NCBI GenBank assembly: GCA_039919545.1
Contig: JBDSFL010000567.1
Span: 1 to 32,412 of the forward strand
Direction of reading: 5' to 3'
From: Thermoanaerobaculia bacterium
Lineage (GTDB): Bacteria > Acidobacteriota > Thermoanaerobaculia > UBA5066
DNA: 32,412 nt
Shown here: piece by piece, positions 8,247 through 31,018 of the stretch
How the letters are laid out: every line of letters starts with the position of its first letter
How positions within the stretch are numbered: position 1 is the first letter of the stretch
Program-made: the position numbers and the translations under genes
Notes under the pieces: model-generated
Database searches by the model: none
The model's input: only the letters and a program-made list of their open reading frames with translations
What the model was told of the DNA's origin: nothing

Positions 8247-8275
8247 GAAGCAAGCCGACGAACCTGGGCCCCGGG

Positions 8276-11239: not shown

Positions 11240-11352
11240 AACGGGCCTCTGGAGAACGGGCGGGAAGGAGAAAGGGGAAGCGAAACGACTCTGATGACTG
11301 ACGACTCCATCATTCGATGATCTGCGCCCCCCTTATACTAAACTCTCACGCC

Positions 11353-11673: not shown

Positions 11674-11675
11674 GC

Positions 11676-15237: not shown

Positions 15238-15353
15238 GGGATTCGAAGTCTACTGCATGGGAGTGCCCACTCCGCCGCCGCAGCGGGACGGTCCGGTGCT
15301 GGAGAGACCCCTCCCGAGCAGGGTGCCGGCGTCCCGAGCATCCTCCGTGTGGT

Positions 15354-16346: not shown

Positions 16347-17253
16347 GATCAGGTCTCCCTTTTGTGTTCTCGAACGTGCGCCACAGGTATTCCCCCAGGA
16401 TTCCGATTCCAAGCGAGTTGAGGCCGCCGAAGAACATGACCGTGAGGACCGTCGCGGTGTAACCAGGCACCTGGATCCGGCCGTCGATGCGCGCAATCAG
16501 GACGACGGCTCCGAAGATGAGCGAGAGCGTGATCCCCGAGAACCCGAAAAAGCTGAGAAGCCGGATGGGAAGATCCGAGAACGCGAAACAGCTATCCAGC
16601 AGGTAGCGAACTTTCCTTCGGAACGACCACCCGCTCTCGCCGTGCTTCCTGGGCCGCCGGGAATAGGGAATCTCGAGCCGGCGAAAGCCCAGCCAAAATA
16701 TCAATCCCACGAGCGTGGAGTTTCTTTCGCTCAGGGCGAGAAGCTGGTCTCTGAACCGGAGGGTACAGCCGAAGACGTCCACTCCCCCCCGCGGGACGTC
16801 GCGCTGCACGAACGCCCGGTACAGCCCCCAGAACGCACGCGAGAACAGACGGTCGAAAAGCGGATCGGAGCGAGAGTCCCGTCGTCCCACGGCGACGTCA
16901 CAGAGCCCCCCCTGGAGAGCATCGAAGAAAGCGACGATGAGCTCAGGCGGCTCCTGGAGATCGGCCGCCATGACGGCGAAGTGTTCGCCGCGTCCCGCCG
17001 CCAAGCCGGCGCGAATCGCCGAGAAGGAGCCGAAATTGCGGCTCAGAACGAGGAGCCTCGAACGGAATGCCGCGTCAGGCAGCACCCTTCGAAGGCATTC
17101 GAGGCTTCGATCGGGGCTCCCGTCCACCACGAACACCACCTCGAAGGCCTTTCCGAGCGCGGTATTCAGCTCCTCGAGCGCCTGGACCAGATCCGGTATG
17201 GAAGCCTCGTTCCGGTAGACGGGGATCACCAGGGAGAGGGTCAACCCCGCCAC
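16285..17253 (-). CDS. Polyprenyl-phosphate glycosyltransferase, GT2 (GtrB/ArnC/DPM1-like) with C-terminal TM helices
   Basis: This is the ORF 16285..17487. No ATG lies near the domain start. The start is either GTG 17253 or TTG 17244 (a TTGA overlap with the aminotransferase stop). The sequence reads LSLVIPVYRNEASIPDLV...VVFVVDGSPDRS...RNFGSFSAIRAGL...MAADLQEPPE. Two C-terminal TM helices follow, ending GILGEYLWRTFENTKGRP, which is a hallmark of the GtrB/ArnC family. Confidence 0.8.
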   Translation of the reverse strand: MAGLTLSLVIPVYRNEASIPDLVQALEELNTALGKAFEVVFVVDGSPDRSLECLRRVLPDAAFRSRLLVLSRNFGSFSAIRAGLAAGRGEHFAVMAADLQEPPELIVAFFDALQGGLCDVAVGRRDSRSDPLFDRLFSRAFWGLYRAFVQRDVPRGGVDVFGCTLRFRDQLLALSERNSTLVGLIFWLGFRRLEIPYSRRPRKHGESGWSFRRKVRYLLDSCFAFSDLPIRLLSFFGFSGITLSLIFGAVVLIARIDGRIQVPGYTATVLTVMFFGGLNSLGIGILGEYLWRTFENTKGRPDHVVISSDEFSGAAGVSSRRG

Positions 17254-18356
17254 TCGTTTGCCGCCTGCACGACCCTTTCCACATCCTCCTCCGACAGGAA
17301 AGGATGAATCGGCAGAGAGACTTCCCCGTCGGCGAAGGATGTCGCGTTCTCGAGCGCTCCATGAATCTCCTTCGCGGCGCCACCGAGCGCCTTCTGTGCC
17401 GGGATGAGCCGCGGATAGTGGATGCCCGTCAGGATCTCGGCTCCCGCCAGATGCGTCCGGAAGGCTTCCCGCCGCGCCGGCTCGCAAAGGACTGGGAAAA
17501 GGTGCCAGGTCGAATCGGAGCCTGCCGGAGCTCCGATCACATTCAGCGCCCCTTTACGAATGCTGGAGCTGTAACGCGCCGCGATCTCACGTCTCCGGGC
17601 GATCCAGCGATCGAGGCGAGGCAGCAACACATCGGTGAGAATGGCCGCCTGCACCTCGTCGAGCCGGCTATTCAGGCCCTCGACATCATGAACATACGTC
17701 GCCGACTGACCGTAGTTCCTGAGCGCGCGGGCCCGCTGCGCGAGAGATGAGTCAGCGGTCAGAAGAGCGCCTCCATCTCCGAGCGCGCCGAGATTCTTCG
17801 TTGGATAGAAGCTCGTTGCCGCGACCTGGCCGACGCTTCCCACAGTGCGGCCGCCGAAGCGGGCTCCGATGGCCTGAGCGCAGTCCTCCACGATCGAGAG
17901 ACCAAATTCGAGCCTCAGGGTTTCGAGCTGCTGAAGGTCCATGGCGTGCCCGAAGAGATGCACGGGCACCAGAAAGCGAATCGTGCGATCCAGGGTCAAG
18001 ACCTCTCGACAGGCGGACAGATCCAGCAAGCCGAATCGGTCGGTATCGACGAAGACGGGAATACCGCCACACCGGCAGATCGCCAGCGTGGTGGCGAAGG
18101 CGCTGAGCGGCGTCGTGAGCACCTTGTCCCCGGGACGCAGGCCGAGGCAACGGAGCCCGATCTCGATGGCATCGAGGCCGTTCCCGACACCGACGGCGTG
18201 CGGGATGCCCCACCAACCGGCGAGGGTTGTTTCCAGTCGTTCGACCTCGCGACCCAGGATGTACCAGCCGCTCGCGCCAACGCGCCCGAAAGCGGCCGCG
18301 GCTTCCTCGCCGATCTCCGCCCACTGGGAGCGAAAGTCATTCAACAGAACGGTCAC
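17241..18356 (-). CDS. DegT/DnrJ/EryC1/StrS-family PLP-dependent sugar aminotransferase (FdtB/QdtB-like)
   Basis: This is the ORF 17241..18575. I start at GTG 18356 (VTVLLNDFRSQWAEIGEE...), preceded by AGAGGGA, which gives a protein of typical length (371 aa). The sequence reads ASGWYILGREVERLE...HAVGVGNGLDAIEIGL, with the PLP-Lys context ATSFYPTKNLGALGDGGALLT. Confidence 0.88.
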   Translation of the reverse strand: MTVLLNDFRSQWAEIGEEAAAAFGRVGASGWYILGREVERLETTLAGWWGIPHAVGVGNGLDAIEIGLRCLGLRPGDKVLTTPLSAFATTLAICRCGGIPVFVDTDRFGLLDLSACREVLTLDRTIRFLVPVHLFGHAMDLQQLETLRLEFGLSIVEDCAQAIGARFGGRTVGSVGQVAATSFYPTKNLGALGDGGALLTADSSLAQRARALRNYGQSATYVHDVEGLNSRLDEVQAAILTDVLLPRLDRWIARRREIAARYSSSIRKGALNVIGAPAGSDSTWHLFPVLCEPARREAFRTHLAGAEILTGIHYPRLIPAQKALGGAAKEIHGALENATSFADGEVSLPIHPFLSEEDVERVVQAANEWRG

Positions 18357-18566
18357 GATTTCCCTCTGACATTCCTCATCGATGCTCTGGATGTTAGCCC
18401 GTGCTGCGGTGTGGTTCGAAAAGCCGAGGAACCTATCCGGGTGATCGCGGGAAAGCGCGCATGGGCGCGCGCGAGACGTAAGGCGTGATAGCGCCTGCAT
18501 GGCTCGAGGCCCGGCGAGTTCTCCGCGTGGTAATTTCGAGCCACCCTCATGGTGATCGGAGAGTCC

Positions 18567-20618
18567 ATGGCCCAAGCGCGACCCTCAAAGCTGAAAAAGT
18601 TGCAGCCCGATGCCCCTCCCGAGACAAAGAGTTCCGCGCCGCATCTTGGCTGGATTGCATTTTCCGCCGTTGCCCTGGGATTGCTTCTCTACTACCGGAC
18701 GTTCGGGGCGTCGTACGCTTACGACGACATCGATTACCTGAACGAGGCGGCCGAAACGCTCTCGGGACGCCCGGGGTTCTGGTCCTCTCTTTTTCGCCCG
18801 CACCAGGGCCACATCGTGCCCGCGCTCCGAGCGCTCTTCACGCTCAACACGTGGCTGTTCGGCACCAATGCGCTTGCGTTCAGGCTCCTCATCTTCGCGT
18901 CTCATATCGGCACGGCGTTTCTTCTCGCCCTGATTGCGCGAAAGCTGTGTCCCTCTCGATGGGCCGCACCAGCGGCTGCCCTCGCCTACGTGCTCCCCGC
19001 AGGGCTGTCCTCGATGTATCTCTGGTTCCCGACCGCAGGCGGACCGCCCCTCGGGCTCGTCTGCTTCTCGGGCGCCCTGGCTGCCGTGGTCTTTCGACGA
19101 GAGCTCGGGCCCCGGCTGTCCCGTGCGCTCGCGATCCTCGGCATCCTTCTCACGCTTTCCTTCGAGAGCGCCCTCTTGCCCATGATCTTCCCCATTGCCT
19201 TCGTGGACGAGGTGGAACGCCGACGCGAGGTAAAGCCCCGGAGTCCTGCTGGCCTCATCAGTCTCTTCTGTCTCATCCTGGGAGTGTTGACGGTCGCAAT
19301 CGCTTCCGGCGCCTACACGCAATCCACAAGTCTCGGTGTGACGTTTCATCCCCTCGCCGCCGTCGAAAGAGCCGTGTTCCTCGTGCTCGTGGCCCCTTTC
19401 CGGCTCGTCTTCCCTGGCCTGCTTCTCGTGCGTCCCGCCGGAGCGAGCGAGCTTTTTCCGTTTCGCGCGTGCCTCTTCGGCCTGTTCCTGACCTTGCTGG
19501 GGTCGGCATTCGCCGCCGCGGTCTTGCGGAAAAAGGCGCTTCCCCTCGCCGTTCTCTCCGGCATCACCCTCACCGGCCCCCTGGGTTTCATCCTGCTGGT
19601 CGCCATCGGGCGCTGGGACGTGCGCTACCAGGATCTGTACGACGCGGACCGCTATTTCTTTCCACTCCTGATTCCGCTTTCGCTCCTTGCTGGTGCGGTG
19701 ACGGGCAGCATTCCAGAGGCACTGAAAACCTGGTCGACCACGCGCCAGCGCGTCGTCGTCATCCTCGCTCTCGCTGCTGTTCTCGTCGAGCTGCGCTTTC
19801 ACCAGCGGGCCCTGATCGAACGGGTCCCGTTCGAGGTCTATCAACAGCACGCACGGCGCTTCCAGCAGCTTTCGGAACTCGGGCGGCTCCTCTCGGAAGC
19901 AGCGGATCAGCTGCCCGAGGGAGCGCCGCCGCTCCGTGTTCCCGATGCCTCGCTGTTCTTCGAGGAAGTACACAACCACCGGATCTCGACCCGCTTGCTG
20001 CTCTTCCTGTCGACCCGGCCTCGGTCTCCCCGGCTGCAGCTCGGAGCCCTTCACGTGGACGCTCGCGATCAGAGCCTTCTGAACCCGGTGCTGGACCGGT
20101 GGGCGTCGGGGATCGGCGAACCTACGCCATACTTTTCGGTGATCGACGGCGAGCTGCGGAACGCACGCGAACAAGGCACGGTGAGGTTCGGGCTCGGGCC
20201 CGCCGACGCTTCCGTGAACAACGGCTTCTACGGCTGGGAGAATGAGTACCGCTGGATGGCAGGCGAGGGAGACCTGAATGTGGTCGCGACCTCCGAGCGC
20301 CTGACCCTGGTGCTCGGCACGCCGCTCTCTTCGATCCTCAAGGCGAGGCCCGAATGGACCTCGATTCCCGTCACGGTGACCGTGATCAACAAAACCAGCG
20401 GAGAGGTGAACGCCGTCGGCACCATCCAGGTGCGACAGGATGGGATTCACCCCTACGAGCTGAAGCTGCCGGAGGGGCTTGCGTCGTCGTTGAAGAATCG
20501 TCCCGTGCGTCTGATCCTCAGGGCGGAGCACACCTGGCGTCCAGTGGATGTAATACCCGGCTCACGGGACGACCGAACCCTGAGCGTTCAGGTCTATGAG
20601 GCCGGTTTCAGACCCTGA
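18567..20618 (+). CDS. GT-C-like membrane glycosyltransferase candidate with a soluble C-terminal domain of about 230 aa
   Basis: The track ORF is 18549..20618. ATG 18567 has GGAGAG 3 nt upstream. The first-loop acidic motif is GASYAYDDIDYLNEAAE, and many hydrophobic segments are present. The C-terminal domain reads FYGWENEYRWMAGEGDLNVV...RPVDVIPGSRDDRTLSVQVYEAGF. It is divergent from the aminotransferase operon. Confidence 0.72.
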   Translation: MAQARPSKLKKLQPDAPPETKSSAPHLGWIAFSAVALGLLLYYRTFGASYAYDDIDYLNEAAETLSGRPGFWSSLFRPHQGHIVPALRALFTLNTWLFGTNALAFRLLIFASHIGTAFLLALIARKLCPSRWAAPAAALAYVLPAGLSSMYLWFPTAGGPPLGLVCFSGALAAVVFRRELGPRLSRALAILGILLTLSFESALLPMIFPIAFVDEVERRREVKPRSPAGLISLFCLILGVLTVAIASGAYTQSTSLGVTFHPLAAVERAVFLVLVAPFRLVFPGLLLVRPAGASELFPFRACLFGLFLTLLGSAFAAAVLRKKALPLAVLSGITLTGPLGFILLVAIGRWDVRYQDLYDADRYFFPLLIPLSLLAGAVTGSIPEALKTWSTTRQRVVVILALAAVLVELRFHQRALIERVPFEVYQQHARRFQQLSELGRLLSEAADQLPEGAPPLRVPDASLFFEEVHNHRISTRLLLFLSTRPRSPRLQLGALHVDARDQSLLNPVLDRWASGIGEPTPYFSVIDGELRNAREQGTVRFGLGPADASVNNGFYGWENEYRWMAGEGDLNVVATSERLTLVLGTPLSSILKARPEWTSIPVTVTVINKTSGEVNAVGTIQVRQDGIHPYELKLPEGLASSLKNRPVRLILRAEHTWRPVDVIPGSRDDRTLSVQVYEAGFRP

Positions 20619-20630
20619 CCACGACATCTC

Positions 20631-22544
20631 TCATTGGAAATACCCGTTCACGTCCAGGATGAGGTGTACCGCGGCGGGTGAGACGTTTGCGAACGTAACG
20701 GCGCCCGACCCGTCGAGGGGAAGCGCCGTCAATCCGTTGTTCGCGCGCGTGATGCCTGCCGAGAAGCTCAACGAGCTGGCCGTGGGACGCAGAGTGCCCA
20801 GATAGATGCTGATGAAACCGGCTCCACCGGGGCCGGTGACGGCCGCGTTGAAGCTGACGCCTCGAGCAGTCGCCGGCACGCTGCACCGGTTGGTGAGCGT
20901 GAAGGCTCGAGCTTCGTTCGCTGAGAGCGCTGGGCCGCCGATGGCGCCGGGGCTGATTCCCCGGGTATCGATCAGCCGACACGGCGTCAACGCATAGAAC
21001 CGCGTCGCCGTCGCACAGTTCGGAGTTCCGGGGACGACGCCACGATGGAGCTCATCGTGCTGGAACATTCCCCAGGGCACGGGGAGTGTGGGTGCTTTCG
21101 GGTTCCAGACCCAGACGCCGGTCGCGCCTGCCGTGGCCGAGGGTGCGATGGCCACCACGTCGATGCTGGTGGCGGAATTATCCAGAGTGCCTACGGCGAT
21201 GTTGTAGAGCGAGCCCGAGACCCCGAACGTGAATCCCCCAACGGGGTGAGAGCCGTTGTCGGTGAGCTGCACTCCCGTGCTCGAAATCACGCAGATTTCC
21301 CCGTTCGTCGGAATGAGGATTTCCGGCGAGGAATTCCCGAGGACGTCGCCCACCATGGGGTCCCCCGCGCTCAGATTCGCAGCGAAGTAATCCCTGATCA
21401 CCACCGGAGCGAACAGCGGAGCGCCGCTCCCACGGATCGCGTAGCAGCGCCGCAGCTGGTCAGGACCCGAGTTGTCGTCCGTGACGACGACTTCCGGCAC
21501 GCCGTCTCCATTCAGGTCTGCGAGCGCGGGTGCCATCACCACCTGGCCGAGGACGCTCACGGGCCAGCCGGAAACGGCCGTGCCGTCGCAATGAAAGGCG
21601 TAGACGGCATGCACCCGGCTTGGCCAGAAGCCTCCCGTTCCGACCACGATCTCCGGCTTCCCGTCGCCGTCGATGTCTCCGACCGCCGGTGAGCTGGTGA
21701 TTACTTGATCGAGGAACTTCGGAAAGCCGCCGAAGTTCGTCCCGTCGGCACGAACGACGTAGAGGCCTCCGCCGTCAGGTGTACTGATCGGAGCCGCCTG
21801 GAAGTGCTGATCGGAGCCGACGATGATTTCCAGTCTGCCATCGCCGTCGAGGTCGAAGAGGGCTGGTGACGACCAGATCGTGTCGTAGGTTCTGTAGGGA
21901 AAGCCCGGCTTTTCGGCGCCGGTTCCGGCGTCCGAAACATGAATGAATTCATCGAAACCGGTCCAGACGACTTCGTTCTTGCCGTCCCCGTCGAGATCGC
22001 CGATCGCGGGCGCCGTGACGATCGGGGCTGTCGCCCCGACAAAGGTGCCGGAAAGCCTCTCCCAGAGGAGATTTCCCGCAGTGTCGTAGGCGCGGAGACC
22101 GCCCCCGTTGACGTTAGAGCCGTTGTTCGAGCCATACCCGATGATGATCGCCGTCACGACAGAGCCTCCGGCCAGAGTGACCGGACCGACGGCGGGCGTG
22201 CTGACGACCTCTCGCGGAAGGGTCTTGGGGAAGCTAGCCGCAGCGGTTCCGTCGTATTTCACGACATACAGTCGACCGGCGGTTCCGGATGGCCCCGACG
22301 TGCCGAAGACGAGGGATTTGTGGCCAGGAGTGAGGCCGAGCTCCGCAAACACGACGTGTCCGAAGGAAGTGCCTCCCCCCGGGAGGACCAGACCGGTCGA
22401 GGGAAAACCCGCTCGGTACGTGCCGGGAGGAGGGCAGGGCTGACCGATCGGGACACATTGCGCGCCCGCATCGGATTCGATGCCGGCCATGAAAACCAAG
22501 AGGAGGAAAGATGAAAATCGACTTCTTGGACCAAGATGATTCAT
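20631..22544 (-). CDS. Secreted FG-GAP/VCBS-repeat beta-propeller protein carrying the shared C-terminal module
   Basis: This is the ORF 20631..23447, but its 5' part overlaps the upstream GT-C gene. The real start is ATG 22544 (MNHLGPRSRFSSFLLLVFMAG...GAQ signal), with GGGAGAG 6 nt upstream. The repeats are IGDLDGDGKNEVV, LFDLDGDGRLEIIVG, VGDIDGDGKPEIVVG and LADLNGDGVPEVVV. The protein ends ...HLILDVNGYFQ-stop. Confidence 0.85.
   Translation of the reverse strand: MNHLGPRSRFSSFLLLVFMAGIESDAGAQCVPIGQPCPPPGTYRAGFPSTGLVLPGGGTSFGHVVFAELGLTPGHKSLVFGTSGPSGTAGRLYVVKYDGTAAASFPKTLPREVVSTPAVGPVTLAGGSVVTAIIIGYGSNNGSNVNGGGLRAYDTAGNLLWERLSGTFVGATAPIVTAPAIGDLDGDGKNEVVWTGFDEFIHVSDAGTGAEKPGFPYRTYDTIWSSPALFDLDGDGRLEIIVGSDQHFQAAPISTPDGGGLYVVRADGTNFGGFPKFLDQVITSSPAVGDIDGDGKPEIVVGTGGFWPSRVHAVYAFHCDGTAVSGWPVSVLGQVVMAPALADLNGDGVPEVVVTDDNSGPDQLRRCYAIRGSGAPLFAPVVIRDYFAANLSAGDPMVGDVLGNSSPEILIPTNGEICVISSTGVQLTDNGSHPVGGFTFGVSGSLYNIAVGTLDNSATSIDVVAIAPSATAGATGVWVWNPKAPTLPVPWGMFQHDELHRGVVPGTPNCATATRFYALTPCRLIDTRGISPGAIGGPALSANEARAFTLTNRCSVPATARGVSFNAAVTGPGGAGFISIYLGTLRPTASSLSFSAGITRANNGLTALPLDGSGAVTFANVSPAAVHLILDVNGYFQ
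20634..21002 (-). other. Shared C-terminal two-Cys module, copy 1 (123 aa)
   Basis: RFYALTPCRLIDTRG...GGPALSANEARAFTLTNRCSVPATARGVSFNAAVT...SAGITRANNG...HLILDVNGYFQ-stop. Confidence 0.8.
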
Positions 22545-22582
22545 ATGAAGCTCTCCCACCAGCCTAGCAGGTCCGCCGGCCG

Positions 22583-24613
22583 TTAGCTGCGATTCCCAGG
22601 CCTCACCGACACGCTCATCACGTTCGGTGTCCCCGTTTCGTTTCCGAACCACGCGACCATCTCCTGAACGAGATCGTAGGTGACGACGTAGGTACCGGGC
22701 TCGACGGGCGCTCGGATCGGAAACTCCGCGCGGAAGGACTGACCCGGTTCGATCCGTCCGGGCAGAAAGAATCGCACCGGCGACTCGACCGGAGCTCCGG
22801 CGATATCCGTTCGTGTCCACCGGTGCCCGACGTGAACCGGCGCCATCCAGGAGCAGGGGCTCGCGTTCGTGACCTCGAAGGAAACCTGCACGGTCTCGCC
22901 GCCGGCGACCGTGTGGGGGTGCCGAATGGTCTTCCACCATGCGGCATGGCCTACGGAGGGTAGCGGGATGGATCTCACGTTTCGAAGGAGCGCCAGCGTT
23001 CCCGGCTCGAGATCGCTGAAAATCGAAAATGCTCCCGCGGACGTCATCCGATACCTTTTCCGGTGTTCGACGAGGTAATCCTCGAAACAATTCGAACGAG
23101 GAGAGAGAAGAACCAAGGCGGGGTTCACAGCCCCATCGACCTCGCGTTCGTAGACCTCCTGCCTCACGATGTCCTCTCCCCGGAGCGGTGTCGCGATGAT
23201 CGACTCGAGTGTCTCGAATGACACCCGGTACGCCGTCCAGTAGCTTGCGTAGATTCGATCGATGCGCTCGGCCTTCAGCTTGGAAACCAGCTGATTCAAC
23301 GAGCCTGTCACTTCTCCGTCCGCCACGACGGTCGTGTGCGTACGCGCCCCAGACAGGCCCGCCGCATGGGTTGCCAGAATTCCCACGAATGCGACGCGTG
23401 AGATCGCCGAAAAGCGGTCGTGTGCTGTCGCCCTCCCCAACGCGCATCCGATGAGCGGGGGCAGGATTGCATAGAGCGTCACCAGAAACCGAGGTTCCGT
23501 TGGCGCGAACCGCCTCGACGCCGCACCCGCGACCAGGACGAAGAGCCCCGCCAGAACAAAAAGCAAGATTCTTGGATCACGGCGGAAGGGCCTTGCCGCA
23601 AGGGGGGCGAGGGCAACCAGCAGCAGCAAACCGACGATCGGCCAGGCTCCCGGATACGCCATCAGCCGGTCGCTGAACGGCTGCGAGGCACCCAGCAGAA
23701 CCGCGAGCGATTTCCGGAGCACAAGGCCCAGATTCGACAGGAGCCCCGCCCCGCCGGCGAGCCCCACATCGGGAGACGAAAGGCTCATCCATCGGTGCCC
23801 GGCATTCCAGTACCACCACGGACCCGATCCGACGATCGCGCCACAGCCCAGCGCCAACGCGGAAGCACCAAAGGGTTTCAGGTATCCGCAAAGCAGGAGC
23901 CACAACAAGGCAGCGGCGACCACGGGAGGCGAGATGGGAGTGACCCAGAGTCCGATGCCCGCCAGCAACCCGAACACGCTCAAAGGAAGCACCGAAGCCT
24001 TCACGCGGGACGCCCGGCTCTTCTGCCAGAGCGCAGCCGACAGGAGCCCCAGCGCGATGAGCTGAGCCGAAGCATAGTGGCCATCGGAGGTGGTGCCCTT
24101 GTAAAGGAAGAACGCGGGAGGAAGCGCCAGGTACGCCGTCCCGAAAAACGCGGCTCTGGCCCCGAACGTACGACGCGTCAGCTCCCAGACGCCGAGGACG
24201 ATGAGGAAGACCAGGAACACCATCGCCCCGCGATAGGTCGTCATCGAACCGCCGAATACCCGGAATACGACAGCAAGATAGTGGGCTTCCAGGCTTCCCG
24301 CGTACGTCGATCCGTAATAGAAGATCGGATGTCCCTTCCCGTGAAGAATGTCGAGCGCCATCAATCCGACGATCGCCTGATCCGAGGTCTCGGGGATCCG
24401 GTGCGTCGTGAGCACCCACGTGACACTTCCCGAGAACATCAGGATCAAGGCGAGGGCAGCCGCGGTCATCCAGCGACGGCTCGGAGATGGCACCAGGGAA
24501 TCAACCGCTGGTCGTGTTCCTGATTTTGTCTCGATGAGCTCGGTCGCGAGGGGGTGGGGTTTTCTCGTCAACATGGGAACCGTGAGTCGCAGAGCCTCGA
24601 CGGGCTGCAGCAC
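22583..24613 (-). CDS. GT-C glycosyltransferase (GT39/ArnT-like) fused to a C-terminal Ig-like domain (LVxExVxWF family, copy C)
   Basis: 676 aa. The start is GTG 24613, with ATG 24574 as an alternative. The first loop reads RIPETSDQAIVGLMALDILHGKGHPIFYYGSTYAGSLE, and many TM segments follow. The C-terminus (about 22586-22960) reads ...VQVSFEVTNASPCSWMAPVHVGHRWT...LPGRIEPGQSFRAEFPIRAPVEPGTYVVTYDLVQEMVAWFGNETG. Confidence 0.8.
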   Translation of the reverse strand: MLQPVEALRLTVPMLTRKPHPLATELIETKSGTRPAVDSLVPSPSRRWMTAAALALILMFSGSVTWVLTTHRIPETSDQAIVGLMALDILHGKGHPIFYYGSTYAGSLEAHYLAVVFRVFGGSMTTYRGAMVFLVFLIVLGVWELTRRTFGARAAFFGTAYLALPPAFFLYKGTTSDGHYASAQLIALGLLSAALWQKSRASRVKASVLPLSVFGLLAGIGLWVTPISPPVVAAALLWLLLCGYLKPFGASALALGCGAIVGSGPWWYWNAGHRWMSLSSPDVGLAGGAGLLSNLGLVLRKSLAVLLGASQPFSDRLMAYPGAWPIVGLLLLVALAPLAARPFRRDPRILLFVLAGLFVLVAGAASRRFAPTEPRFLVTLYAILPPLIGCALGRATAHDRFSAISRVAFVGILATHAAGLSGARTHTTVVADGEVTGSLNQLVSKLKAERIDRIYASYWTAYRVSFETLESIIATPLRGEDIVRQEVYEREVDGAVNPALVLLSPRSNCFEDYLVEHRKRYRMTSAGAFSIFSDLEPGTLALLRNVRSIPLPSVGHAAWWKTIRHPHTVAGGETVQVSFEVTNASPCSWMAPVHVGHRWTRTDIAGAPVESPVRFFLPGRIEPGQSFRAEFPIRAPVEPGTYVVTYDLVQEMVAWFGNETGTPNVMSVSVRPGNRS

Positions 24614-24672: not shown

Positions 24673-25215
24673 TTACTGGAAGTAGCCGGTGACGTCGATC
24701 AGGAGATCGAACGTGAACGTATTCGTACACTGAAACACGCCCCCGATCGTTCCGCAGCCGGCCCCAAGCACCTGGAAGTCCTGGCCGGTGAAGTTCCCGC
24801 CGCCCGCCGCGGTGCCGCCGAGCGGAACGATGGCGCCGTTGGCGATCGTCTCGTTCTGGTAGTAGTTCGTGGTGGAGACGTTCGGGAATGAGCCGGGAAA
24901 GGGCGCGATGCGAAGGTCTCCGCCGCCCGCATTTGGATTCACGATCGTTAGGTTGAGCGAAACGGCGGCGGCATTGGCCGGCACTCCGCAGAACCCGCGC
25001 ACCGTGAATGCGCGCGTGGTGGCCGAGCTGATGGTTCCACCGCCCGTGCCGGCGGCCGAAGGCTGCCCGGCTCTCGTGTCGTAGGCGCGACACGGCGACA
25101 CCGCGTAGTAGGAGTACGGCCCCCCCGTCACCTGCGCGAATGCGGCAGAAGAAGAGAGGAGTGCGACGGCTCCCGCGAAGAGGGCAACGACCCTGGGACC
25201 GAGATGATTCTTCAT
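24673..25215 (-). CDS. Small secreted protein consisting of a signal peptide plus the shared C-terminal module only
   Basis: 180 aa. AAGGAGAA lies 3 nt before ATG 25215. The signal is MKNHLGPRVVALFAGAVALLSSSAAFAQ. The module reads YYAVSPCRAYDTR...RAFTVRGFCGVPANAAAVSLNLT...FDLLIDVTGYFQ-stop. Confidence 0.82.
   Translation of the reverse strand: MKNHLGPRVVALFAGAVALLSSSAAFAQVTGGPYSYYAVSPCRAYDTRAGQPSAAGTGGGTISSATTRAFTVRGFCGVPANAAAVSLNLTIVNPNAGGGDLRIAPFPGSFPNVSTTNYYQNETIANGAIVPLGGTAAGGGNFTGQDFQVLGAGCGTIGGVFQCTNTFTFDLLIDVTGYFQ
24676..25113 (-). other. Shared C-terminal two-Cys module, copy 2 (146 aa, with a Gly-rich insertion and one extra Cys pair)
   Basis: SYYAVSPCRAYDTRAG...CGVPANAAAVSLNLTIVN...GGTAAGGGNFTGQDFQVLGAGCGTIGGVFQCTNTFTFDLLIDVTGYFQ-stop. 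Confidence 0.8.
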
Positions 25216-25243: not shown

Positions 25244-26662
25244 TCATGGAAACGCTCCGTTCACGTCAATGATTAGATGGGTGCTCCCGGAAGCCCCCTC
25301 GAAGAGGGCCGTCAGGCCTTGCTCGGGGGACAACCAGATGATGGCGTTGTTGGCGCGCGACTTGCCGGCGGCGAAGCTCACGGCGCTCGCTGCGCTCGGG
25401 CCGGAATGGGTGGCGAAGAGGCGAATGAGGCCCGCAGTGGAAGCATTCACGGCCGTCACGTTCGCCGAGATCGCCCGCGCACCGGGCGGAATGCCGCACT
25501 GGCCGGCTACTGAAAACGTTCGCTCGACGCCGTTTGCAAGCGCTGGCCCTCCCAGGTTTCCCGCGGCGAGCCGCGTATCGAGCAGGCGGCAGGGTGTCAG
25601 TGTCTTGAGCTGAAGCGGGCCGAGCGGGGGACGCCAACCGAGCTGGATCACTTCGAAGTCGCTTGCATGGAGCGCGCCAAAGGCTGGATTCAGGAGGCCG
25701 TTGTCCCACCGCGTGTCGTAGGTGCCCTGGATGTACATGTTCGAGCCGTTGTCCGCGACGATGAGCCCGTACGTCTTCATCGCCTGCACGATGCGCTGCA
25801 CGCCGGCGTCGGCGCTCGCCACCGTGACGCCGGGCTTCAGGCGCATCCGCGTGCCCATCGGGAGCGCCCCCACGGTGGAACCGGCGTCGTGTGAGCCCGG
25901 ATACACGTAGTCAAAGGAGTTCTGCACCGTGAAACGGAACGCGTGCTTGATCGGAGACGCACCGTACGCCTCGTCGTAGCGAACGAGCCCGGGCAGGATC
26001 GCGAGGCCCGCCGCATCGGCGCTCGTCCACGTGTCGGGCCTGCGCGCGTTCGAATCCAGCGAAAAAATGGCTCCCGAGCCGGCGCTCCAAGTGCAATTCG
26101 CGTCATCTGCCGGAAGGCACCGCGTGTTGAAGGTCTCGAAAAGCAGCCGATTATCGGTATCGACGATCAGCATGTGGTTGTCGCCCGCACACGGCGACGT
26201 CTGAGGGGTGGGGAGCGTTCGGTCGCAGTTGCCCGGATAGCCCCCCTCGATCCAGTGCGGCAGCGTTTTCGCCTGGTTGGGGATCGGATAACCCAAGGGG
26301 CGCCCCGGCGCACCGTAGTCGCTCTCGGTCGGGTAGTCGAAGGTCATCTCCACGAGCGGCTGGGTGCCGGGAACCGTGATGTAGACCATCCCGTAGATCG
26401 CGGTCGGACCCGCATCGCCGCCGAAATCGGGATGCAGCGCTCGCGTGCCGCCGATGTGCGCGATCAGCGCGGCGCTCTTGAGGTCCACGGGCGCGCTCGT
26501 GACGTCGACGTTCCACCAGTTGTCCGCTGGAAAGAGCGGGTTTGGCCCGGGCAGAGGGCCGCCGGGAACGGCCTGAGCAACCGCGAAGGCGGACGTCATC
26601 GCACTCGCCGCGCCGAGGGCGAGCACGAGCAGGGCGGATCGGGCGCTACTGGAAGTAACCAT
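25244..26662 (-). CDS. Secreted protein of unknown function (N-terminal domain of about 340 aa) carrying the shared C-terminal module
   Basis: 472 aa. The signal is MVTSSSARSALLVLALGAASAMTSAFAVAQA. The N-domain has conserved-looking blocks DNWWNVDV, HPDFGG, RPDTWTSADAAGLAILPGLVRYDE, IKHAFRFTV, LPMGTRMRLK and YGLIVADNGSNMYIQG. I recognise this as a recurrent uncharacterised family but cannot name it. The protein ends ...HLIIDVNGAFP-stop. Confidence 0.8.
   Translation of the reverse strand: MVTSSSARSALLVLALGAASAMTSAFAVAQAVPGGPLPGPNPLFPADNWWNVDVTSAPVDLKSAALIAHIGGTRALHPDFGGDAGPTAIYGMVYITVPGTQPLVEMTFDYPTESDYGAPGRPLGYPIPNQAKTLPHWIEGGYPGNCDRTLPTPQTSPCAGDNHMLIVDTDNRLLFETFNTRCLPADDANCTWSAGSGAIFSLDSNARRPDTWTSADAAGLAILPGLVRYDEAYGASPIKHAFRFTVQNSFDYVYPGSHDAGSTVGALPMGTRMRLKPGVTVASADAGVQRIVQAMKTYGLIVADNGSNMYIQGTYDTRWDNGLLNPAFGALHASDFEVIQLGWRPPLGPLQLKTLTPCRLLDTRLAAGNLGGPALANGVERTFSVAGQCGIPPGARAISANVTAVNASTAGLIRLFATHSGPSAASAVSFAAGKSRANNAIIWLSPEQGLTALFEGASGSTHLIIDVNGAFP
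25247..25612 (-). other. Shared C-terminal two-Cys module, copy 3 (about 122 aa)
   Basis: QLKTLTPCRLLDTRLAAGNLGGPALANGVERTFSVAGQCGIPPGARAISANVTAV...AAGKSRANNA...HLIIDVNGAFP-stop. Confidence 0.8.
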
Positions 26663-28403
26663 TCACGTCGAGGATGAAGTGGATCGTACTCGCAGATTCG
26701 TTCTGAACGGCCAGAGTTCCGGCGGAATTCGTCGCGAGGCGAAGCTGGGCGCTGTTGGCGCGCGTCAGACCGGGCGCGAAGGTGATGGACGTGGACGAAG
26801 GAGGGCCGAGATCAGCCGGGTAGATCTTCAGGTCTCCGGCGGCGGCTACCTGAGTCACCGTGATGTTCCCGGAGATCGACTTCGCGCTGGCCGGAACGCC
26901 GCACGAGCCCACGATGGGGAACACCCGGAGTCCGTTGGCGGCCAGCGCAGGCCCTCCGAGGGAGCCGGCCGCGTTGCGCGTATCCACCACGCGGCAGGGC
27001 GGAACGGAATAGAACTTGATGGGGCCCGCCGCGGCGACCGTGAACGGGAAGATGCATGTTCCGACGGCGGCGACTATCTTCGGCTGGAGCAGCGCCACCG
27101 AGGTGGGATGAAAGACGTTCTTGGCGCTGCAGCCGGCGATCCCCGACACGTGGCAGTAGCTCATGAGCGTGCCCGTCACGCTCGGAACGCCGTTGTAGGT
27201 GGCGGCTGCGGGGCAGCTCGTCCCGGGACCCGGCCAGCAGGTTGGGCCGGACTGGATGTAGCAGGTGTCGATCGGCGGGTTGTAGCAGTGGGTGTGCGGA
27301 GAGCCGAAATTGTGGCCGACCTCGTGCCCCACCACGTAGGTGTCGCCGGTCAAGTTTCCCGGCTTGAAGACCTGGCTGTAGCTGTAGCCGGTCGAGGAGC
27401 TGTTGCAGAGTCCGTCGAGCCAGGCGATGCCCGAGGCCGAGAAGCCGCTCGACTGCTTCCCCGAGAGCATCATCGCGAGCGCCCGAGTGATGCCGCCGTT
27501 GTTCGTGGCCCAATAGTTCGTGAATTCGTTGAGGTTGGCGATGCCGGCGCCGCCGTTCGTTCCCAGCGCATACGGGTCCGGCGTCGTGGTGACCCGCAGG
27601 AACGTCGTGCCCTGGACGAGCCGGACGAGCAGGTCGCGCTCGTACATCAGGCTCATCGAGGCGAACAGGCTGGCGATGTAGTTCGTGGCGTTCGTGGTGT
27701 TGTCGCCGTAGAACGCCATCAGCTCGTTGTCGGTGTCGACCGCGATCACGGCGGTGTGGAGCGAGGTGATGGCCAGCGGCGCGACGCCGGCGAGCGTCTG
27801 GCGCGGCGCGGCGTCGACGGCGGGATCGTAGGGAACCTGGTCCTCGCCGCACGACCACCGGCGCTCGGCCTGCTGCTCGGGCGACAGGAAAGACTGCGCT
27901 TCCCCGAGCACGTGCCGCGCGCCCTCGTCCCCGGTCTCGGCACGCAGCTCCTGCAAGCCGGCCTCCGTCTCGGCGAGGCCATGAAAGGTCTTGCGATCCG
28001 GATCGAGGATGACGACGACGCGCGTGGCCTCGTCGCCCGCCACCGTGCCCCAGAAAAAATGCAGGCGCGATTTCGGCAGCTCCGTGAGCGTGCCGCCATC
28101 GACGCGGAAGATGCGGGCGTCCGCCGCATAGACGTCGTGGCGGGTGAGAGACACCTCGGCGCGTCGTCCGGGAGAGAGCGGCCAGCCGGCGATCGAGACC
28201 TCGCTCTCCATTGGGATCTCCTCCAGGAAACCAGGGAGCGCTGCATCGAACGACAGGCGCTCCATCCGGCTCACGCCGTCGCGCGCCAGGTCGAAAGTGC
28301 CCGCCGTGGCCGCACGGCCTTCGAATCGCCGCACCGGCGCCGCTTGCGCGAATCGCGCCGAGACGACGACACCGAGGAGCAGCAGACGCAGGACCCGTTG
28401 CAT
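26646..28403 (-). CDS. Secreted zinc metalloprotease (reprolysin/M12B-like zincin) carrying the shared C-terminal module
   Basis: 585 aa. The signal is MQRVLRLLLLGVVVSARFAQA. The zinc motif YVVGHEVGHNFGSPHTHC (HExxHxxGxxH) lies at nt 27294-27326 on the minus strand, and the catalytic domain is Cys-rich. The protein ends ...HFILDVNGYFQ-stop. The 3' end overlaps the next gene by 17 nt. Confidence 0.85.
   Translation of the reverse strand: MQRVLRLLLLGVVVSARFAQAAPVRRFEGRAATAGTFDLARDGVSRMERLSFDAALPGFLEEIPMESEVSIAGWPLSPGRRAEVSLTRHDVYAADARIFRVDGGTLTELPKSRLHFFWGTVAGDEATRVVVILDPDRKTFHGLAETEAGLQELRAETGDEGARHVLGEAQSFLSPEQQAERRWSCGEDQVPYDPAVDAAPRQTLAGVAPLAITSLHTAVIAVDTDNELMAFYGDNTTNATNYIASLFASMSLMYERDLLVRLVQGTTFLRVTTTPDPYALGTNGGAGIANLNEFTNYWATNNGGITRALAMMLSGKQSSGFSASGIAWLDGLCNSSSTGYSYSQVFKPGNLTGDTYVVGHEVGHNFGSPHTHCYNPPIDTCYIQSGPTCWPGPGTSCPAAATYNGVPSVTGTLMSYCHVSGIAGCSAKNVFHPTSVALLQPKIVAAVGTCIFPFTVAAAGPIKFYSVPPCRVVDTRNAAGSLGGPALAANGLRVFPIVGSCGVPASAKSISGNITVTQVAAAGDLKIYPADLGPPSSTSITFAPGLTRANSAQLRLATNSAGTLAVQNESASTIHFILDVNGYFQ
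26649..27017 (-). other. Shared C-terminal two-Cys module, copy 4 (123 aa)
   Basis: KFYSVPPCRVVDTRNAAGSLGGPALAANGLRVFPIVGSCGVPASAKSISGNITVT...APGLTRANSA...HFILDVNGYFQ-stop. Confidence 0.8.
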
Positions 28404-28566: not shown

Positions 28567-29082
28567 TCAGCGCTTGTAGGTCTTCACGGCGCTGCGCGTC
28601 TCGCGGTCGATCTCGCGCTTCTTGATGGTCTCGCGCTTGTCGTACTGCTTCTTGCCGGTGACGACCGCGATCTGCGCCTTCACGTGCTTGCCCTTGAAAT
28701 AGAGCGAGAGGGGAACGCACGTGGCGCCCGATTTCTGGATCCTCGCGGCCAGCCGGGTGATCTCGCGCCGGTGCAGGAGCAGCTTGCGCCGCCGTTTCGA
28801 ATCGGGGTTGTTGTAGCTCCCGGCGCCGTACGGAGCGATGTGGACGTTCCAGAGCCACACCTCGGTGCCGTCGATGGCCACGTAGCCGTCCGTCAGGTTG
28901 GCTTGCCCGTCGCGCAGCGACTTGACCTCGGTGCCCGTGAGCGCCAGGCCCGCCTCGAGCTTGTCTTCGATGAAGTAGTCGTGAAGCGCGCGCCGGTTCG
29001 TCGCGATGGGCCGCACGCCCGCGTTCTTGTCGGCGTTCCGGTCCGACGTGCGCTTCTCGTTGCGCTCGATGCGCGACTTCAT
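28567..29082 (-). CDS. smpB: SsrA-binding protein SmpB
   Basis: 171 aa. The sequence ...NRRALHDYFIEDKLEAGLALTGTEVKSLRDGQANLTDGYV...RRRKLLLHRREI...VPLSLYFKGKHVKAQIAVVTGKKQYDKRETIKKRE is collinear with E. coli SmpB as I remember it. Confidence 0.95.
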   Translation of the reverse strand: MKSRIERNEKRTSDRNADKNAGVRPIATNRRALHDYFIEDKLEAGLALTGTEVKSLRDGQANLTDGYVAIDGTEVWLWNVHIAPYGAGSYNNPDSKRRRKLLLHRREITRLAARIQKSGATCVPLSLYFKGKHVKAQIAVVTGKKQYDKRETIKKREIDRETRSAVKTYKR

Positions 29083-29092
29083 GACGGGGGCT

Positions 29093-30820
29093 TCATTGAG
29101 CGGGCTTCATCGTCTCGACCATGGCGCGGAAGGCGGGCAACAGCTCCGGGTCGAACTGCGTGCCGCCTTTCGACGAGAGGATCTCGAGCGCCTGCCCCGC
29201 AGAGATGACCGCGCGGTAGGAGGTGGGCGACGTCATCGCGTCGAAGGCCTCGCAGAGATGGATGATTCGCGACCCGAGCGGAATCTGCTCGCCGCGCAAG
29301 CCGTCCGGATAGCCGGCGCCGTCCCAGCGCTCGTGATGGTGCTTCACCAGCGGCGCGACGGGATAGGGCCAGGGCACCTCGTCGAGCAGGTAGGCGCCGA
29401 CCCGCGCGTGTTCGCGCAGGAGCCGCAGCTCCTCCTCGTTCAGGTTTCGCTTGGCATAGAGCTCGTCGTAGCTGAGGTCTTTCATCCCGATGTCGTGCAG
29501 GATGGCCGCGACCGTGATCTGCTCGATCTCGATCGCGGGCAGCCGCAGGGCGCTCGCGATCTTGCGCGCCATCCGGCCCACGTTGAACGAGTGCGTCTTC
29601 AGCGCCGCGTACTTCTTCAGCCCCGGCTCGAGCAGCTTGTTGACCAGGTTCTTGTAAGCCTCTCGGTAGAGGCCCGCCCCACGAACCTCCTCGAGCGAGG
29701 TCTTGATGAGGAGGTGGACGTCTTTGAGGCCCTCACGCGTGTCCGCGCCGGGCCCGTGGCGGAAGACGAAGGACAGGATCGAGACCTCGTCGGACGAGAC
29801 CTGAAGCACCGACGACTGGATCGCCGCGAACTCCCCACGTCCGAGCGGCGAAGCGCCTTCGGCGGGGGCGCGGAGGCTCGTCAGGCGACGGGTGGGGGCC
29901 AGCGGGAAGCCCGCGCCTGAACGCGCGAAGACCTTCTCGACGTTTTCCAGCACGGCAGGCTCCACGTCGGCCGAAATGGGCCGGCGCGCGGCAAATACGA
30001 TCTCGACCTCTCGACGGCCGCACAGGGTGATTGCCGCCAGCTCCAGGTCGGGAAGGTGAAGGCAGGCCTCCAGATGCAGGCGATGGAACGCGGTCTCACG
30101 CGCCCGCACGGATGCGGGAATTGCGGGGCGGGGCGCCGGGGTGCGCGCGAGCGTTTCCTCCACGAGCTTGAGCAGGCGCGCCGCGCCGCTGGGGAGGTGC
30201 GAGACCGGCAGCTCGTCCAGGCTCTGCGGTGCCGCGGGGGCGGGACGCGGAGGGGCCTCGGCTCGCGGAGCCGGACCGGGAGCCACGGCGGGCGGAGGCG
30301 CGGGCGGAGCGTTGCCTGAGGACCTGCTGTCGCGGAACCCGCGTTCGAGCTGGAACTCCTCTTCCTCCACACCGACCGAGCGGTAGCGGGGCAAGGCCGC
30401 GGCGTGCACGGAAAGACGTTCCAGGATCTCGTTCACCCGCTCGATGTCGGCGGGAAGGAAGGGTTCACGCCCGGCCTTGTCCCGCACGTCGAGGATGCCG
30501 ATCATCCGGCCGTCCAGGTACAGCGGCGCCGTGAGGATGCGAGTGGACGAGGCGGCATCCATCAGGTTGGCCAGGGCTCCGGCGCTCTTGAAATCGTTGG
30601 CGTAGCGCGGGACGCGAGCCTCGTTGACGGCCTGGGCCATCGCATCGCCCCGATGGATCACGGTGGCGAAACGGTCGGTGCGCCCGAAGCCATAGCTGGC
30701 GGCCAGCGCATAGCTTCCGTTGGGCTCCGAGAGGTAGAAGGCCGCTTTCGTGGCCCGGACCTTCTCCATCAGCTGATAGAGAGTTTCCTTGAAGGGCCTC
30801 TCTTCATCGGAAGTCAACAC
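29093..30820 (-). CDS. GAF domain / HD-GYP domain protein (putative c-di-GMP phosphodiesterase or signalling protein)
   Basis: This is the C-terminal 575 codons of ORF 29093..32185. The start is placed at GTG 30820, with ATG 30769 as an alternative, because everything upstream is antisense to lpxC. The GAF-like N-terminus reads AAFYLSEPNGSYALAASYGFG...LYLDGRMIGILDVRDK, followed by a Pro/Ala-rich linker. The HD-GYP part reads AAILHDIGM...VKHHHERWDGAGYPDGL. Confidence 0.82.
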   Translation of the reverse strand: MLTSDEERPFKETLYQLMEKVRATKAAFYLSEPNGSYALAASYGFGRTDRFATVIHRGDAMAQAVNEARVPRYANDFKSAGALANLMDAASSTRILTAPLYLDGRMIGILDVRDKAGREPFLPADIERVNEILERLSVHAAALPRYRSVGVEEEEFQLERGFRDSRSSGNAPPAPPPAVAPGPAPRAEAPPRPAPAAPQSLDELPVSHLPSGAARLLKLVEETLARTPAPRPAIPASVRARETAFHRLHLEACLHLPDLELAAITLCGRREVEIVFAARRPISADVEPAVLENVEKVFARSGAGFPLAPTRRLTSLRAPAEGASPLGRGEFAAIQSSVLQVSSDEVSILSFVFRHGPGADTREGLKDVHLLIKTSLEEVRGAGLYREAYKNLVNKLLEPGLKKYAALKTHSFNVGRMARKIASALRLPAIEIEQITVAAILHDIGMKDLSYDELYAKRNLNEEELRLLREHARVGAYLLDEVPWPYPVAPLVKHHHERWDGAGYPDGLRGEQIPLGSRIIHLCEAFDAMTSPTSYRAVISAGQALEILSSKGGTQFDPELLPAFRAMVETMKPAQ

Positions 30821-31018
30821 GCCATTCCAAGCATAGCAGCCGAACGCGCCAGGTTGATCTCGGTGAGGCCGCGCGTGCGGACGCAAGGTGTGGCTTCCGC
30901 GCCGCACGGTGAGGGGAGGGCGCCACATGTGTGGGGCGCGCAAGTGCCGTGCACGCAATGAAATCAAGCACTTTCGCGAGTGATCTCCCTGGCATCCCCC
31001 ATGCGTAGGCTCGGCATC

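Follow-up and report, generated by a model that had tools for sequence, protein, structure and literature searches.

In Pseudomonas aeruginosa group IV, the gene of the GT-C glycosyltransferase TfpW lies immediately downstream of pilA, and the enzyme glycosylates the pilin (bioRxiv 10.1101/2020.04.19.049825). The slg cluster of Geobacillus couples Wzm/Wzt export of a methyl-capped glycan to an oligosaccharyltransferase that acts on the S-layer protein encoded by sgsE (PMC2943079). In the Pgf system, the adhesins that the GtrB-like PgfS and the GT-C enzyme PgfM1 glycosylate are products of the same gene cluster (PMC12041528). Three-component systems (GtrA/GtrB/Gtr*, GT136 ORF12 and the GacI/L type) combine a polyprenyl-phosphate-sugar synthase with a GT-C enzyme carrying an accessory binding domain, and act on polysaccharides exported by ATP-binding cassette (ABC) transporters (PMC11127046). 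ArnT (family GT83) is the undecaprenyl-phosphate-4-amino-4-deoxy-L-arabinose (L-Ara4N):lipid A transferase. In general, the acceptors of GT-C enzymes are hard to assign from sequence. Here, we describe a GT-C gene in a 32,412-nucleotide (nt) contig of a Thermoanaerobaculia bacterium (JBDSFL010000567.1), which is called the window at its full length. The gene (22583-24613, minus strand) is immediately 3' of the gene for a small exported protein (24673-25215, minus strand) that consists of a signal peptide and a single jelly-roll module. This two-gene cassette recurs across Acidobacteriota genomes and names a concrete candidate partner for the transferase.

The pairing was assessed in 32 species genomes and was scored when the GT-C match was preceded, on its own strand, by a module gene ending less than 400 nt away. 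Coordinates follow the numbering of the window, L001-L046 are labels of the compared loci, and P0001 and P0002 are collection protein calls. The pair is present in 22/32 genomes, and in 21 of these 22 the module gene is of the stand-alone type. Thus, in these loci and in the metagenomic relatives, the transferase gene is immediately 3' of the gene for an exported candidate acceptor. The same arrangement is seen in the window, in L001-L004, on the contig of P0002 and in L045. Every close metagenomic relative encodes a protein of about 470 amino acids (aa) with a module (p470), the stand-alone module protein and the GT-C, with an FG-GAP protein carrying the module nearby. The canonical order is reprolysin with module, p470 with module, FG-GAP with module, stand-alone module and GT-C. 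The window is a local variant, with the FG-GAP gene relocated 3' of the GT-C gene. The initial annotation had described the GT-C gene as embedded in an operon of module-bearing cargo genes. This holds for the window; in other loci, the FG-GAP gene lies before the module-only gene, and the series ends with the GT-C gene.

The pair is also kept in a divergent subgroup (L027, L028, L030, L031, L033, L035 and L041) whose GT-C proteins are about 30-32% identical wherever the match covers the full length, and there no other module gene is found nearby. In L031, one operon (7008-16993) encodes DUF4349, PDZ-Sel1, the stand-alone module, GT-C, a methyltransferase, a soluble GT2, TPR, Wzm and Wzt. This minimal cassette lacks the GtrB-like GT2 that is present in the window. 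In a neighbor-joining tree without bootstrap, the non-adjacent GT-C proteins of L013-L015 and L037 form one derived clade, and their genes lie beside a Trm112-like methyltransferase gene. In L045 (6679-8489), the stand-alone module gene is followed by a GT-C of the family in two ORFs (open reading frames) of 367 and 182 aa; the split reflects a frameshift, an assembly error or a pseudogene. The adjacency of module and GT-C is ancestral and strongly maintained. A chance co-location of two rare gene types does not account for it. Functional coupling is strongly supported, because the pair is frequent among the genomes, persists at 30% identity and is retained in the minimal cassette. Therefore, the GT-C and the stand-alone module very probably work together. 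The initial annotation had tied the two to each other from local adjacency only, and the comparison across genomes and metagenomic relatives bears this out. In the loci compared, the orthologues of the GT-C are not found mainly where the module is absent.

Some loci depart from this arrangement but have the pair of stand-alone module and p470. In Holophagales L005/L006 (10614-12448), a 146-aa immunoglobulin-like (Ig-like) lipoprotein and a 465-aa polytopic protein are encoded directly after the stand-alone module gene. In L007 (13522-15353), the genes for the Ig-like lipoprotein and the 465-aa protein lie about 3 kb past the module gene, beyond a methyltransferase gene and a GT-C homologue on the minus strand. 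These two proteins may represent a split or a non-orthologous replacement of the GT-C. Comparison of the GT-C profile with the 465-aa protein and with the three other polytopic proteins of the window using hhalign gave weak probabilities of 0.7-27%. The constant feature across loci is the presence of module proteins beside surface-glycan synthesis, and the GT-C family is one frequent and ancient partner.

The GT-C protein was modelled with AlphaFold (AF2) on a 20-sequence family alignment, and the same profile was used to search the PDB sequences. The model reached a predicted local distance difference test (pLDDT) score of 88.6 and a predicted TM-score (pTM) of 0.86. Foldseek placed ArnT (5F15) first (E 6e-8), followed by AglB, ALG12, STT3, PglB, AftB and AftA, all with a probability of 1.0. 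Since the E values to solved GT-C enzymes range from 6e-8 to 1e-4, the fold match is not due to chance. The family profile matched AglB (E 6e-4) and ArnT (E 5.6e-3) among the PDB sequences. Pfam PMT_2 (PF13231) matched residues 113-269 at 23.5 bits (E 7e-5), which misses the gathering threshold of 26.1, and several homologues carry a precomputed PF13231 match. The relation to PMT_2 is thus real but marginal. The NCBIfam scan, which included the ArnT model, gave no match, and neither did phmmer against the PDB sequences. PF02366 (PMT) and MIR were not matched in Pfam, and the first loop has S-D-Q rather than the D-E of the PMT type. On the basis of the modelled fold, the ORF is confirmed to encode a GT-C(A)-fold membrane glycosyltransferase, in agreement with the GT-C assignment made at first annotation. 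It is not a confirmed member of ArnT, PMT or STT3/PglB proper.

The transmembrane (TM) domain comprises residues ~44-422 with about 12-13 helices (23348-24484, minus strand), according to the AF2 secondary structure and the family alignment. TM1 is formed by helix 44-69 and is followed by helices 77-90 and 108-120. The first-loop motif RIPETSDQAIVGLMALDILHG is located at residues 72-92 (nt 24281-24400). The first periplasmic loop with its juxtamembrane helix, RIPETSDQAIVGLMALDILHGKGHPIFYYGSTYAGSLEAH in translation, spans 24281-24400 on the minus strand and carries D78 (codon 24380-24382). The juxtamembrane periplasmic helix begins at D78 within S-D-Q, and about 11 more membrane helices follow TM1. 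The model predicts a cytoplasmic N-terminus and places D78 in the first loop on the periplasmic side. All 8 family members compared have this Asp, a candidate catalytic base, and its conservation across 20 sequences is at least 90%. The acidic first-loop motif (ETSDQ) reported in the initial annotation is present. Its Asp is conserved, but Glu75 is not. Other invariant columns of the loop in the family alignment are R72, Q79, H95, P96, G101, S102, Y104, E109 and H111. The membrane domain also contains an invariant loop, YKGxTSDGxY (172-180, with K172 and T175-G178), and a PWWxWN motif (265-270). A regular-expression search found no WWDxG in the GT-C, where WW occurs only at residues 266 (membrane domain) and 559, and none in any of the four polytopic proteins of the window, as had been annotated.

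Two further domains follow the membrane domain. Residues ~425-556 form a periplasmic alpha/beta domain (22946-23341, minus strand; AF2 elements H440-556 and E453-533). The C-terminal domain of residues 558-671 (22601-22942, minus strand) is Ig-like, with Foldseek matches to 4OLE, 2KL6 and 4ZOD. It resembles NBR1-FW, CARDB and the GH3 C-terminal domain, and matches Pfam N_BRCA1_IG below the threshold (E 3e-4). This domain is paralogous to a stand-alone 178-aa protein, p178 (5322-5858), and tblastn with p178 finds matches at the 3' ends of GT-C genes across many loci.

The window has a high GC content (62-68%), so that long spurious ORFs are frequent, and real genes were told apart by codon-position GC. 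By this measure, the ORF at 22583-24613 is a real gene (GC3 0.75, GC2 0.51). It encodes 676 aa from GTG 24613. ATG 24574 (M14) is a possible alternative start, and the collection gene call P0001 begins at M49 (ATG 24469) and gives 628 aa. Residues 1-40 are unconserved in homologues and have a pLDDT below 50. The start codon is uncertain, and the length is therefore given as 628-676 aa. The initial description of a 676-aa polytopic protein with a large C-terminal extramembrane part agrees with a real ORF whose residues ~425-676 are extramembrane in the AF2 model. The gap of 38 nt to the FG-GAP gene is as first reported. The gap of 59 nt to the upstream 180-aa gene applies only to the GTG start and becomes ~98 or ~203 nt with the ATG starts. 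The FG-GAP gene starts at ATG 22544, preceded by the Shine-Dalgarno sequence GGGAGAG. A 938-aa ORF (20631-23447, minus strand) that overlaps the 3' end of the GT-C gene is a high-GC read-through upstream of the FG-GAP gene, and thus an artefact. A terminator and promoter scan found no convincing terminator between the module gene and the GT-C gene, with counts near the shuffle expectation.

The GT-C family is rare. Among 5.8 billion clustered proteins, it has 7 clear relatives with 28-58% identity over full-length alignment, with a sparse set of GT39-like proteins ranking behind them. When one genome was scanned for each species, 34 loci were detected. Of these, 33 are in metagenome-assembled genomes labelled Acidobacteriota, mostly Thermoanaerobaculia or Holophagales. 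The sole exception, L042, is labelled Enterobacteriaceae and has a partial GT-C match at residues 67-309. The GT-C is thus a rare, previously undescribed family restricted to Acidobacteriota.

The module, by contrast, is far broader than the GT-C family. The stand-alone protein has 180 aa and is predicted to form a jelly-roll beta-sandwich (AF2, pLDDT 86.7). It is 72-79% identical across close metagenomic contigs, versus 42-58% for the GT-C. The module itself has about 125 aa with the signature PCRxxDTR...CGxP...SLNxT...VSTxN...ANGAIVP...DxxGYF. An hmmsearch with the module profile located it in the window at 24676-25200, 25250-25621, 26649-27077 and 20634-21002. Residues P41, C42, R43, D46, R48, C76, N88, T90, N126, D174, G177 and F179 are invariant in 36 stand-alone homologues. 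Against 1.84 billion representatives, the module profile matched 33,456 clusters at E<=1e-3 and 23,385 at E<=1e-10. The best matches are large extracellular proteins with 3, 6 or 9 tandem copies. Since the copies come in multiples of three, this suggests a (pseudo)trimeric unit. Elsewhere, the module is accompanied by PKD, BACON, reprolysin, GH10, GH16, S8 and FG-GAP domains; in the compared loci, it is borne by reprolysin, FG-GAP, GH44 and Kelch proteins. It is a very widespread extracellular domain that occurs mostly outside the lineage of the GT-C. There was no match to the module in Pfam, NCBIfam or PHROGs, or, with the module profile, among the PDB sequences. Structural matches in the PDB are weak (best E 3e-3) and include the coats of satellite viruses and ilarviruses, the TNF-like C-terminal domain of Pgp3, Ena fibres, the BC2L-C N-terminal lectin and CBM36. 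Among predicted viral structures, the module matches phage tail-fibre tips (E 1.6e-4 to 1e-3). A Ser/Thr-rich loop of the stand-alone module, PSAGGTGGG, was considered as a conserved O-glycosylation site and rejected. It is confined to the closest clade of the window and is absent from most GT-C-paired homologues.

Genes that could supply a glycosyl donor are found in the window. As first annotated, a GtrB/ArnC-type GT2 and amino-sugar genes lie nearby, and the block was seen at 15354-18575 with Pfam and NCBIfam. The GT2 (16285-17250, minus strand) is GtrB/ArnC/PgfS-like and has two C-terminal TM helices. Its NCBIfam scores to PgfS (1.6e-53) and ArnC (8.6e-35) are both below the equivalog cut-offs. 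It is a candidate polyprenyl-phosphate-sugar synthase and donor supplier. Homologues of this GT2 are located 3-5 kb from the GT-C in L012, L017, L024, L029 and L038. The block also encodes a hexapeptide N-acetyltransferase fused to an FdtA/WxcM-type isomerase (15354-16496, minus strand; Pfam FdtA 7.6e-47 and Hexapep) and a DegT aminotransferase (17241-18575, minus strand; Pfam DegT 2e-89). Judged by these family matches, the two genes belong to a 3-acetamido-3,6-dideoxyhexose-type sugar pathway. The position of the GT2 between the DegT gene and the FdtA fusion would imply a polyprenyl-phosphate-linked 3-acetamido-3,6-dideoxyhexose, an unusual donor. The long ORFs of the block overlap, and the actual genes begin further in than the listed ORFs. 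Neither ArnA nor ArnD was found among the genes of the window.

A second route is ABC-transporter-dependent. The window encodes a Wzm/Wzt-type ABC-2 glycan exporter (9616-11239, minus strand; Pfam ABC2_membrane and ABC_tran), with the permease at 10391-11239 and the ATPase at 9616-10401. The pathway in the window includes an epimerase, a two-domain GT2+GT4 transferase of the polymerase type, 2-3 methyltransferases, Wzm/Wzt and a coiled-coil protein. In the minimal cassettes of L027, L030, L031, L033 and L035, an orthologous Wzm/Wzt pair follows the GT-C gene at a distance of about 3.5 kb. No flippase of the GtrA, MATE or ArnE/F type was recognised in the window, where the GtrB-like GT2 and the GT-C are both present. 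As a candidate for a GtrA-type flippase, p118 (11317-11673) was rejected; it is a soluble coiled-coil protein with no Pfam match, though it is conserved near the GT2/GT4 gene.

The GT-C may be a dedicated periplasmic protein glycosyltransferase for the stand-alone module, following the logic of pilA-tfpW/tfpO or of the S-layer slg clusters. We favor this reading tentatively, as a possible one that falls somewhat short of being probable. The GT-C would carry out the periplasmic transfer step, in which a polyprenyl-phosphate- or polyprenyl-diphosphate-linked sugar or glycan of the locus is moved to the stand-alone module protein, and possibly also to the module-bearing secreted enzymes. As its donor, the GT-C would use either the polyprenyl-phosphate sugar that the GtrB-like GT2 produces or the lipid-linked glycan that Wzm/Wzt exports. 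Use of such a donor is predicted from the locus context and remains a candidate property. The linkage would most likely be O-linked or otherwise sequon-independent, rather than PglB-type N-glycosylation at the N-x-T motif of the module. Because all module proteins carry Sec signal peptides, they reach the periplasmic face, where GT-C enzymes act. The minimal cassette reads as a self-contained set for building, exporting and transferring a glycan, with the candidate acceptor encoded first. Furthermore, a module protein without cargo makes little sense as a mere anchor tag.

Several observations weigh against this proposal. The closest solved structure is that of ArnT, whose acceptor is a lipid. 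About 10 of the 32 loci show no adjacency of module and GT-C. The pair of stand-alone module and p470 is also found in glycan loci without the GT-C family (L008/L009, L044 and L046); L008/L009 have a YfhO-like protein in place of the GT-C, and L044 and L046 are Wzx-type clusters. The module family is enormous and mostly outside the GT-C lineage. The module proteins of the GT-C loci lack the Ser/Thr-rich disordered segments that are usual for acceptors of PMT-, Pgf- and PgtC-type GT-C enzymes. The fold weakly resembles phage tail-fibre tips and TNF-like lectins, and the invariant polar residues (R43, D46, R48, N88, T90, N126 and D174) look more like a ligand-binding or structural site. The sequence evidence is compatible with either role of the module, as the acceptor or as the binder of the GT-C product.

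In a different assignment, the GT-C would decorate an envelope glycan or glycolipid, such as the polysaccharide exported by Wzm/Wzt, and the module would bind the resulting epitope and anchor the enzymes non-covalently. SLH domains, which bind the CsaB-pyruvylated cell-wall polymer, offer a precedent. Such a role would suit a C-terminal appendage shared by unrelated secreted enzymes, the family-wide invariance of polar residues and the weak likeness of the fold to the trimeric BC2L-C N-terminal lectin, CBM36 and phage tail-fibre tips, as well as the trimeric binding unit suggested by tandem copies in multiples of three. Module genes are always in or beside glycan loci, even without the GT-C family, and GT-C enzymes that decorate ABC-exported polysaccharides and carry extra binding domains are well documented (PMC11127046). 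However, no carbohydrate-binding family matches the module at a significant score, and binding of this kind leaves two facts unexplained: no other gene of the block is as conserved as that of the cargo-less stand-alone module, and this gene lies immediately 5' of the GT-C gene. We consider it rather unlikely, though it is the main rival of the favored reading. As one of several Gtr/ArnT-like enzymes, the GT-C could also modify an O-antigen-like polysaccharide or lipid A/core with the product of the GtrB-like GT2, with the adjacency to the module reflecting no more than a shared surface locus. In favor of this, no solved structure matches better than ArnT, and three-component systems are widespread (PMC11127046). 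The window also encodes Wzm/Wzt, amino-sugar enzymes, a GtrB/ArnC-like GT2 and three other polytopic proteins whose TM1 is followed by an acidic motif. The derived clade of L013-L015 and L037 also has no module neighbor. Against this stands the adjacent pairing on the same strand, which is kept from ~59% to 30% identity even without other cargo genes. Given how few module genes a genome has, the pairing goes far beyond loose co-location. Moreover, no GtrA-type flippase was found in the window, p118 being a coiled-coil protein, and the minimal cassette lacks the GtrB-like GT2. Simple decoration of this kind is therefore doubtful in our view.

The least probable explanation is N-glycosylation of the module by the GT-C acting as a non-STT3 oligosaccharyltransferase, and we regard it as very improbable. 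The initial annotation had observed N-x-T at the same aligned position in three of the four copies, and this is seen in the sequences (SLNLT, SANVT and SGNIT). It had taken the motif, along with further sequons in the tails, as a clue to glycosylation. N-x-T is indeed frequent: among 102 distinct module copies in Acidobacteriota loci, it occurs in 92, N-x-A in 7 and N-x-S in 1. AglB, STT3 and PglB folds rank directly behind ArnT, and the minimal cassette carries the exporter of a lipid-linked glycan, with no WaaL-type ligase call. However, the motif marks the whole family of about 33,000 clusters (33,456) and is nearly invariant in each repeat of 54 triple-tandem proteins from other lineages. 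It is located in the middle of a predicted beta-strand (84-92, AF2 model of the stand-alone module). In the 102 copies, the residue after the Asn is hydrophobic throughout, and S, A, V or T, but never D/E, occupies position -2. Replacement of Thr by Ala (7) exceeds replacement by Ser (1), and the FG-GAP copy in the operon of the window has no Thr (SFNAA). Since a glycosylation sequon should tolerate Ser over Ala and be lineage-specific, N-x-T reads as a signature of the fold or of a binding site. The tail sequons (NVS, NET and NFT) are in the sequence as described but vary even among close stand-alone homologues. PglB-type N-glycosylation at N-x-T was thus rejected, in view of the missing WWDxG, the absence of D/E at -2 and the family-wide nature of the motif. 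Of the overall interpretation first proposed, the identity of the GT-C and its link to the module stand, while the sequon argument does not. A broader version of the acceptor proposal is that the module is a folded domain for glycan acceptance or attachment, and that a GT-C family distinct from STT3 and Wzy_C loads an ABC-exported, methyl-capped polysaccharide onto all module proteins. This is speculative and in our estimate unlikely.

Three further module proteins are encoded around the pair. The 472-aa secreted protein (25244-26662, minus strand) has an N-terminal domain and a C-terminal module found by the module-profile hmmsearch (25250-25621). The N-terminal domain (25622-26662) is 59-72% identical across loci, is always encoded directly upstream of the stand-alone module gene and has no match in Pfam, NCBIfam or the PDB sequences. 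A reprolysin-like M12 metalloprotease (26646-28403, minus strand; Pfam Reprolysin_5 2e-17) has the module at its C-terminus (26649-27077), as does an FG-GAP beta-propeller protein (20631-22544, minus strand; Pfam FG-GAP_3 and FG-GAP), whose copy at 20634-21002 carries N-A-A. A 689-aa polytopic protein with YDDIDY after TM1 (18549-20618, plus strand) is a candidate second GT-C. Its hhalign match to the GT-C profile is weak (27%). In L002-L004, L010 and L018, its gene and that of the GT-C orthologue are translationally coupled. Together with this protein, those at 1771-3555 (minus strand) and 8276-9730 (minus strand) carry acidic motifs after TM1 (YDDIDY, WDEYYY and GDEPRY, respectively). Only the protein at 8276-9730 matches Pfam PMT_2, below the threshold. 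By these motifs, all three are probably further GT-C-type enzymes.

The gene for the stand-alone Ig-like protein (5322-5858, plus strand) is directly before a Peptidase_C25 gene of the gingipain/PorU type (5901-8246, plus strand). PorU-like sorting, in which this peptidase would cut the module and link cargo to glycan in the manner of type IX secretion, was considered and rejected, as no C25 homologue is found within 10 kb of the GT-C in any other locus. Neither the C25 peptidase gene nor the DegT and FdtA genes recur in other GT-C loci. The flank of the cargo block (28567-31897) encodes SmpB, a GAF+HD-GYP protein and LpxC. SmpB flanks the cargo block in L007, L008, L018 and L024, and LpxC does so in L007 and L024, which marks the edge of an island. 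Scans of the window for tRNA, tmRNA and Rfam families gave no match.

The GT-C represents a new family in a known superfamily, and both its pairing with the module and the module family itself appear undescribed in the Pfam, NCBIfam and PDB searches. With the partner as the acceptor, the GT-C would represent a new type of protein-glycosylating enzyme in bacteria, from a phylum without a characterised one. If the partner instead binds the product, the module would be a new surface-anchoring lectin domain. Either outcome would offer a first insight into the function of a very large family of extracellular domains without a match in the Pfam and NCBIfam collections searched, and into the surface-glycan biology of uncultured Thermoanaerobaculia and Holophagales. 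Should the module in general prove to be an acceptor domain, it would point to a proteoglycan-like surface display in Acidobacteriota and provide a first function for the family of ~33,000 clusters. The minimal cassette of L031 is a compact candidate for heterologous reconstitution.

Among the known systems, ArnT (5F15/5EZM) is closest to the GT-C in structure, with a TM-score of 0.57 normalised to ArnT, a cytoplasmic N-terminus, a first juxtamembrane helix on the periplasmic side that begins with an acidic residue, and a periplasmic domain at the C-terminus. Near the GT-C gene are also genes for an ArnC-like GT2 and an ArnB-like aminotransferase. However, the two proteins share only 13% identity, and the GT-C has an extra Ig-like C-terminal domain. 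Its sugar genes suggest a 3-amino-3,6-dideoxyhexose (FdtA) and not Ara4N, and it has a conserved secreted-protein gene partner. Such a partner is also missing from the three-component systems, which the window resembles in having a GtrB-like GT2; no flippase was identified in the window. The Pgf and GtrB-PgtC2 systems of streptococci are similar to the window in that its GT2 scores best to PgfS. PgfM1 and PgtC2, however, are of the YfhO family, and their acceptors are long Ser/Thr-rich disordered regions that are absent from module proteins. The slg clusters of Geobacillus and Paenibacillus share with the GT-C locus a multidomain glycosyltransferase, a methyltransferase, Wzm/Wzt, TPR and a membrane transferase encoded beside a surface-protein gene. 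Sugar genes of the FdtA/QdtB type are typical of slg clusters, and the FdtA type is found in the window. By contrast, WsaB/WsfB of slg clusters have a Wzy_C (O-antigen-ligase) domain instead of an ArnT-like GT-C fold, the hosts are Gram-positive and the acceptor is a large S-layer protein. TfpW is most similar in gene arrangement, since its gene is immediately 3' of the gene of a small exported protein. TfpW has a C-terminal TPR where the GT-C has alpha/beta and Ig-like domains, and its partner is a type IV pilin, whereas the candidate acceptor of the GT-C is a jelly-roll protein.

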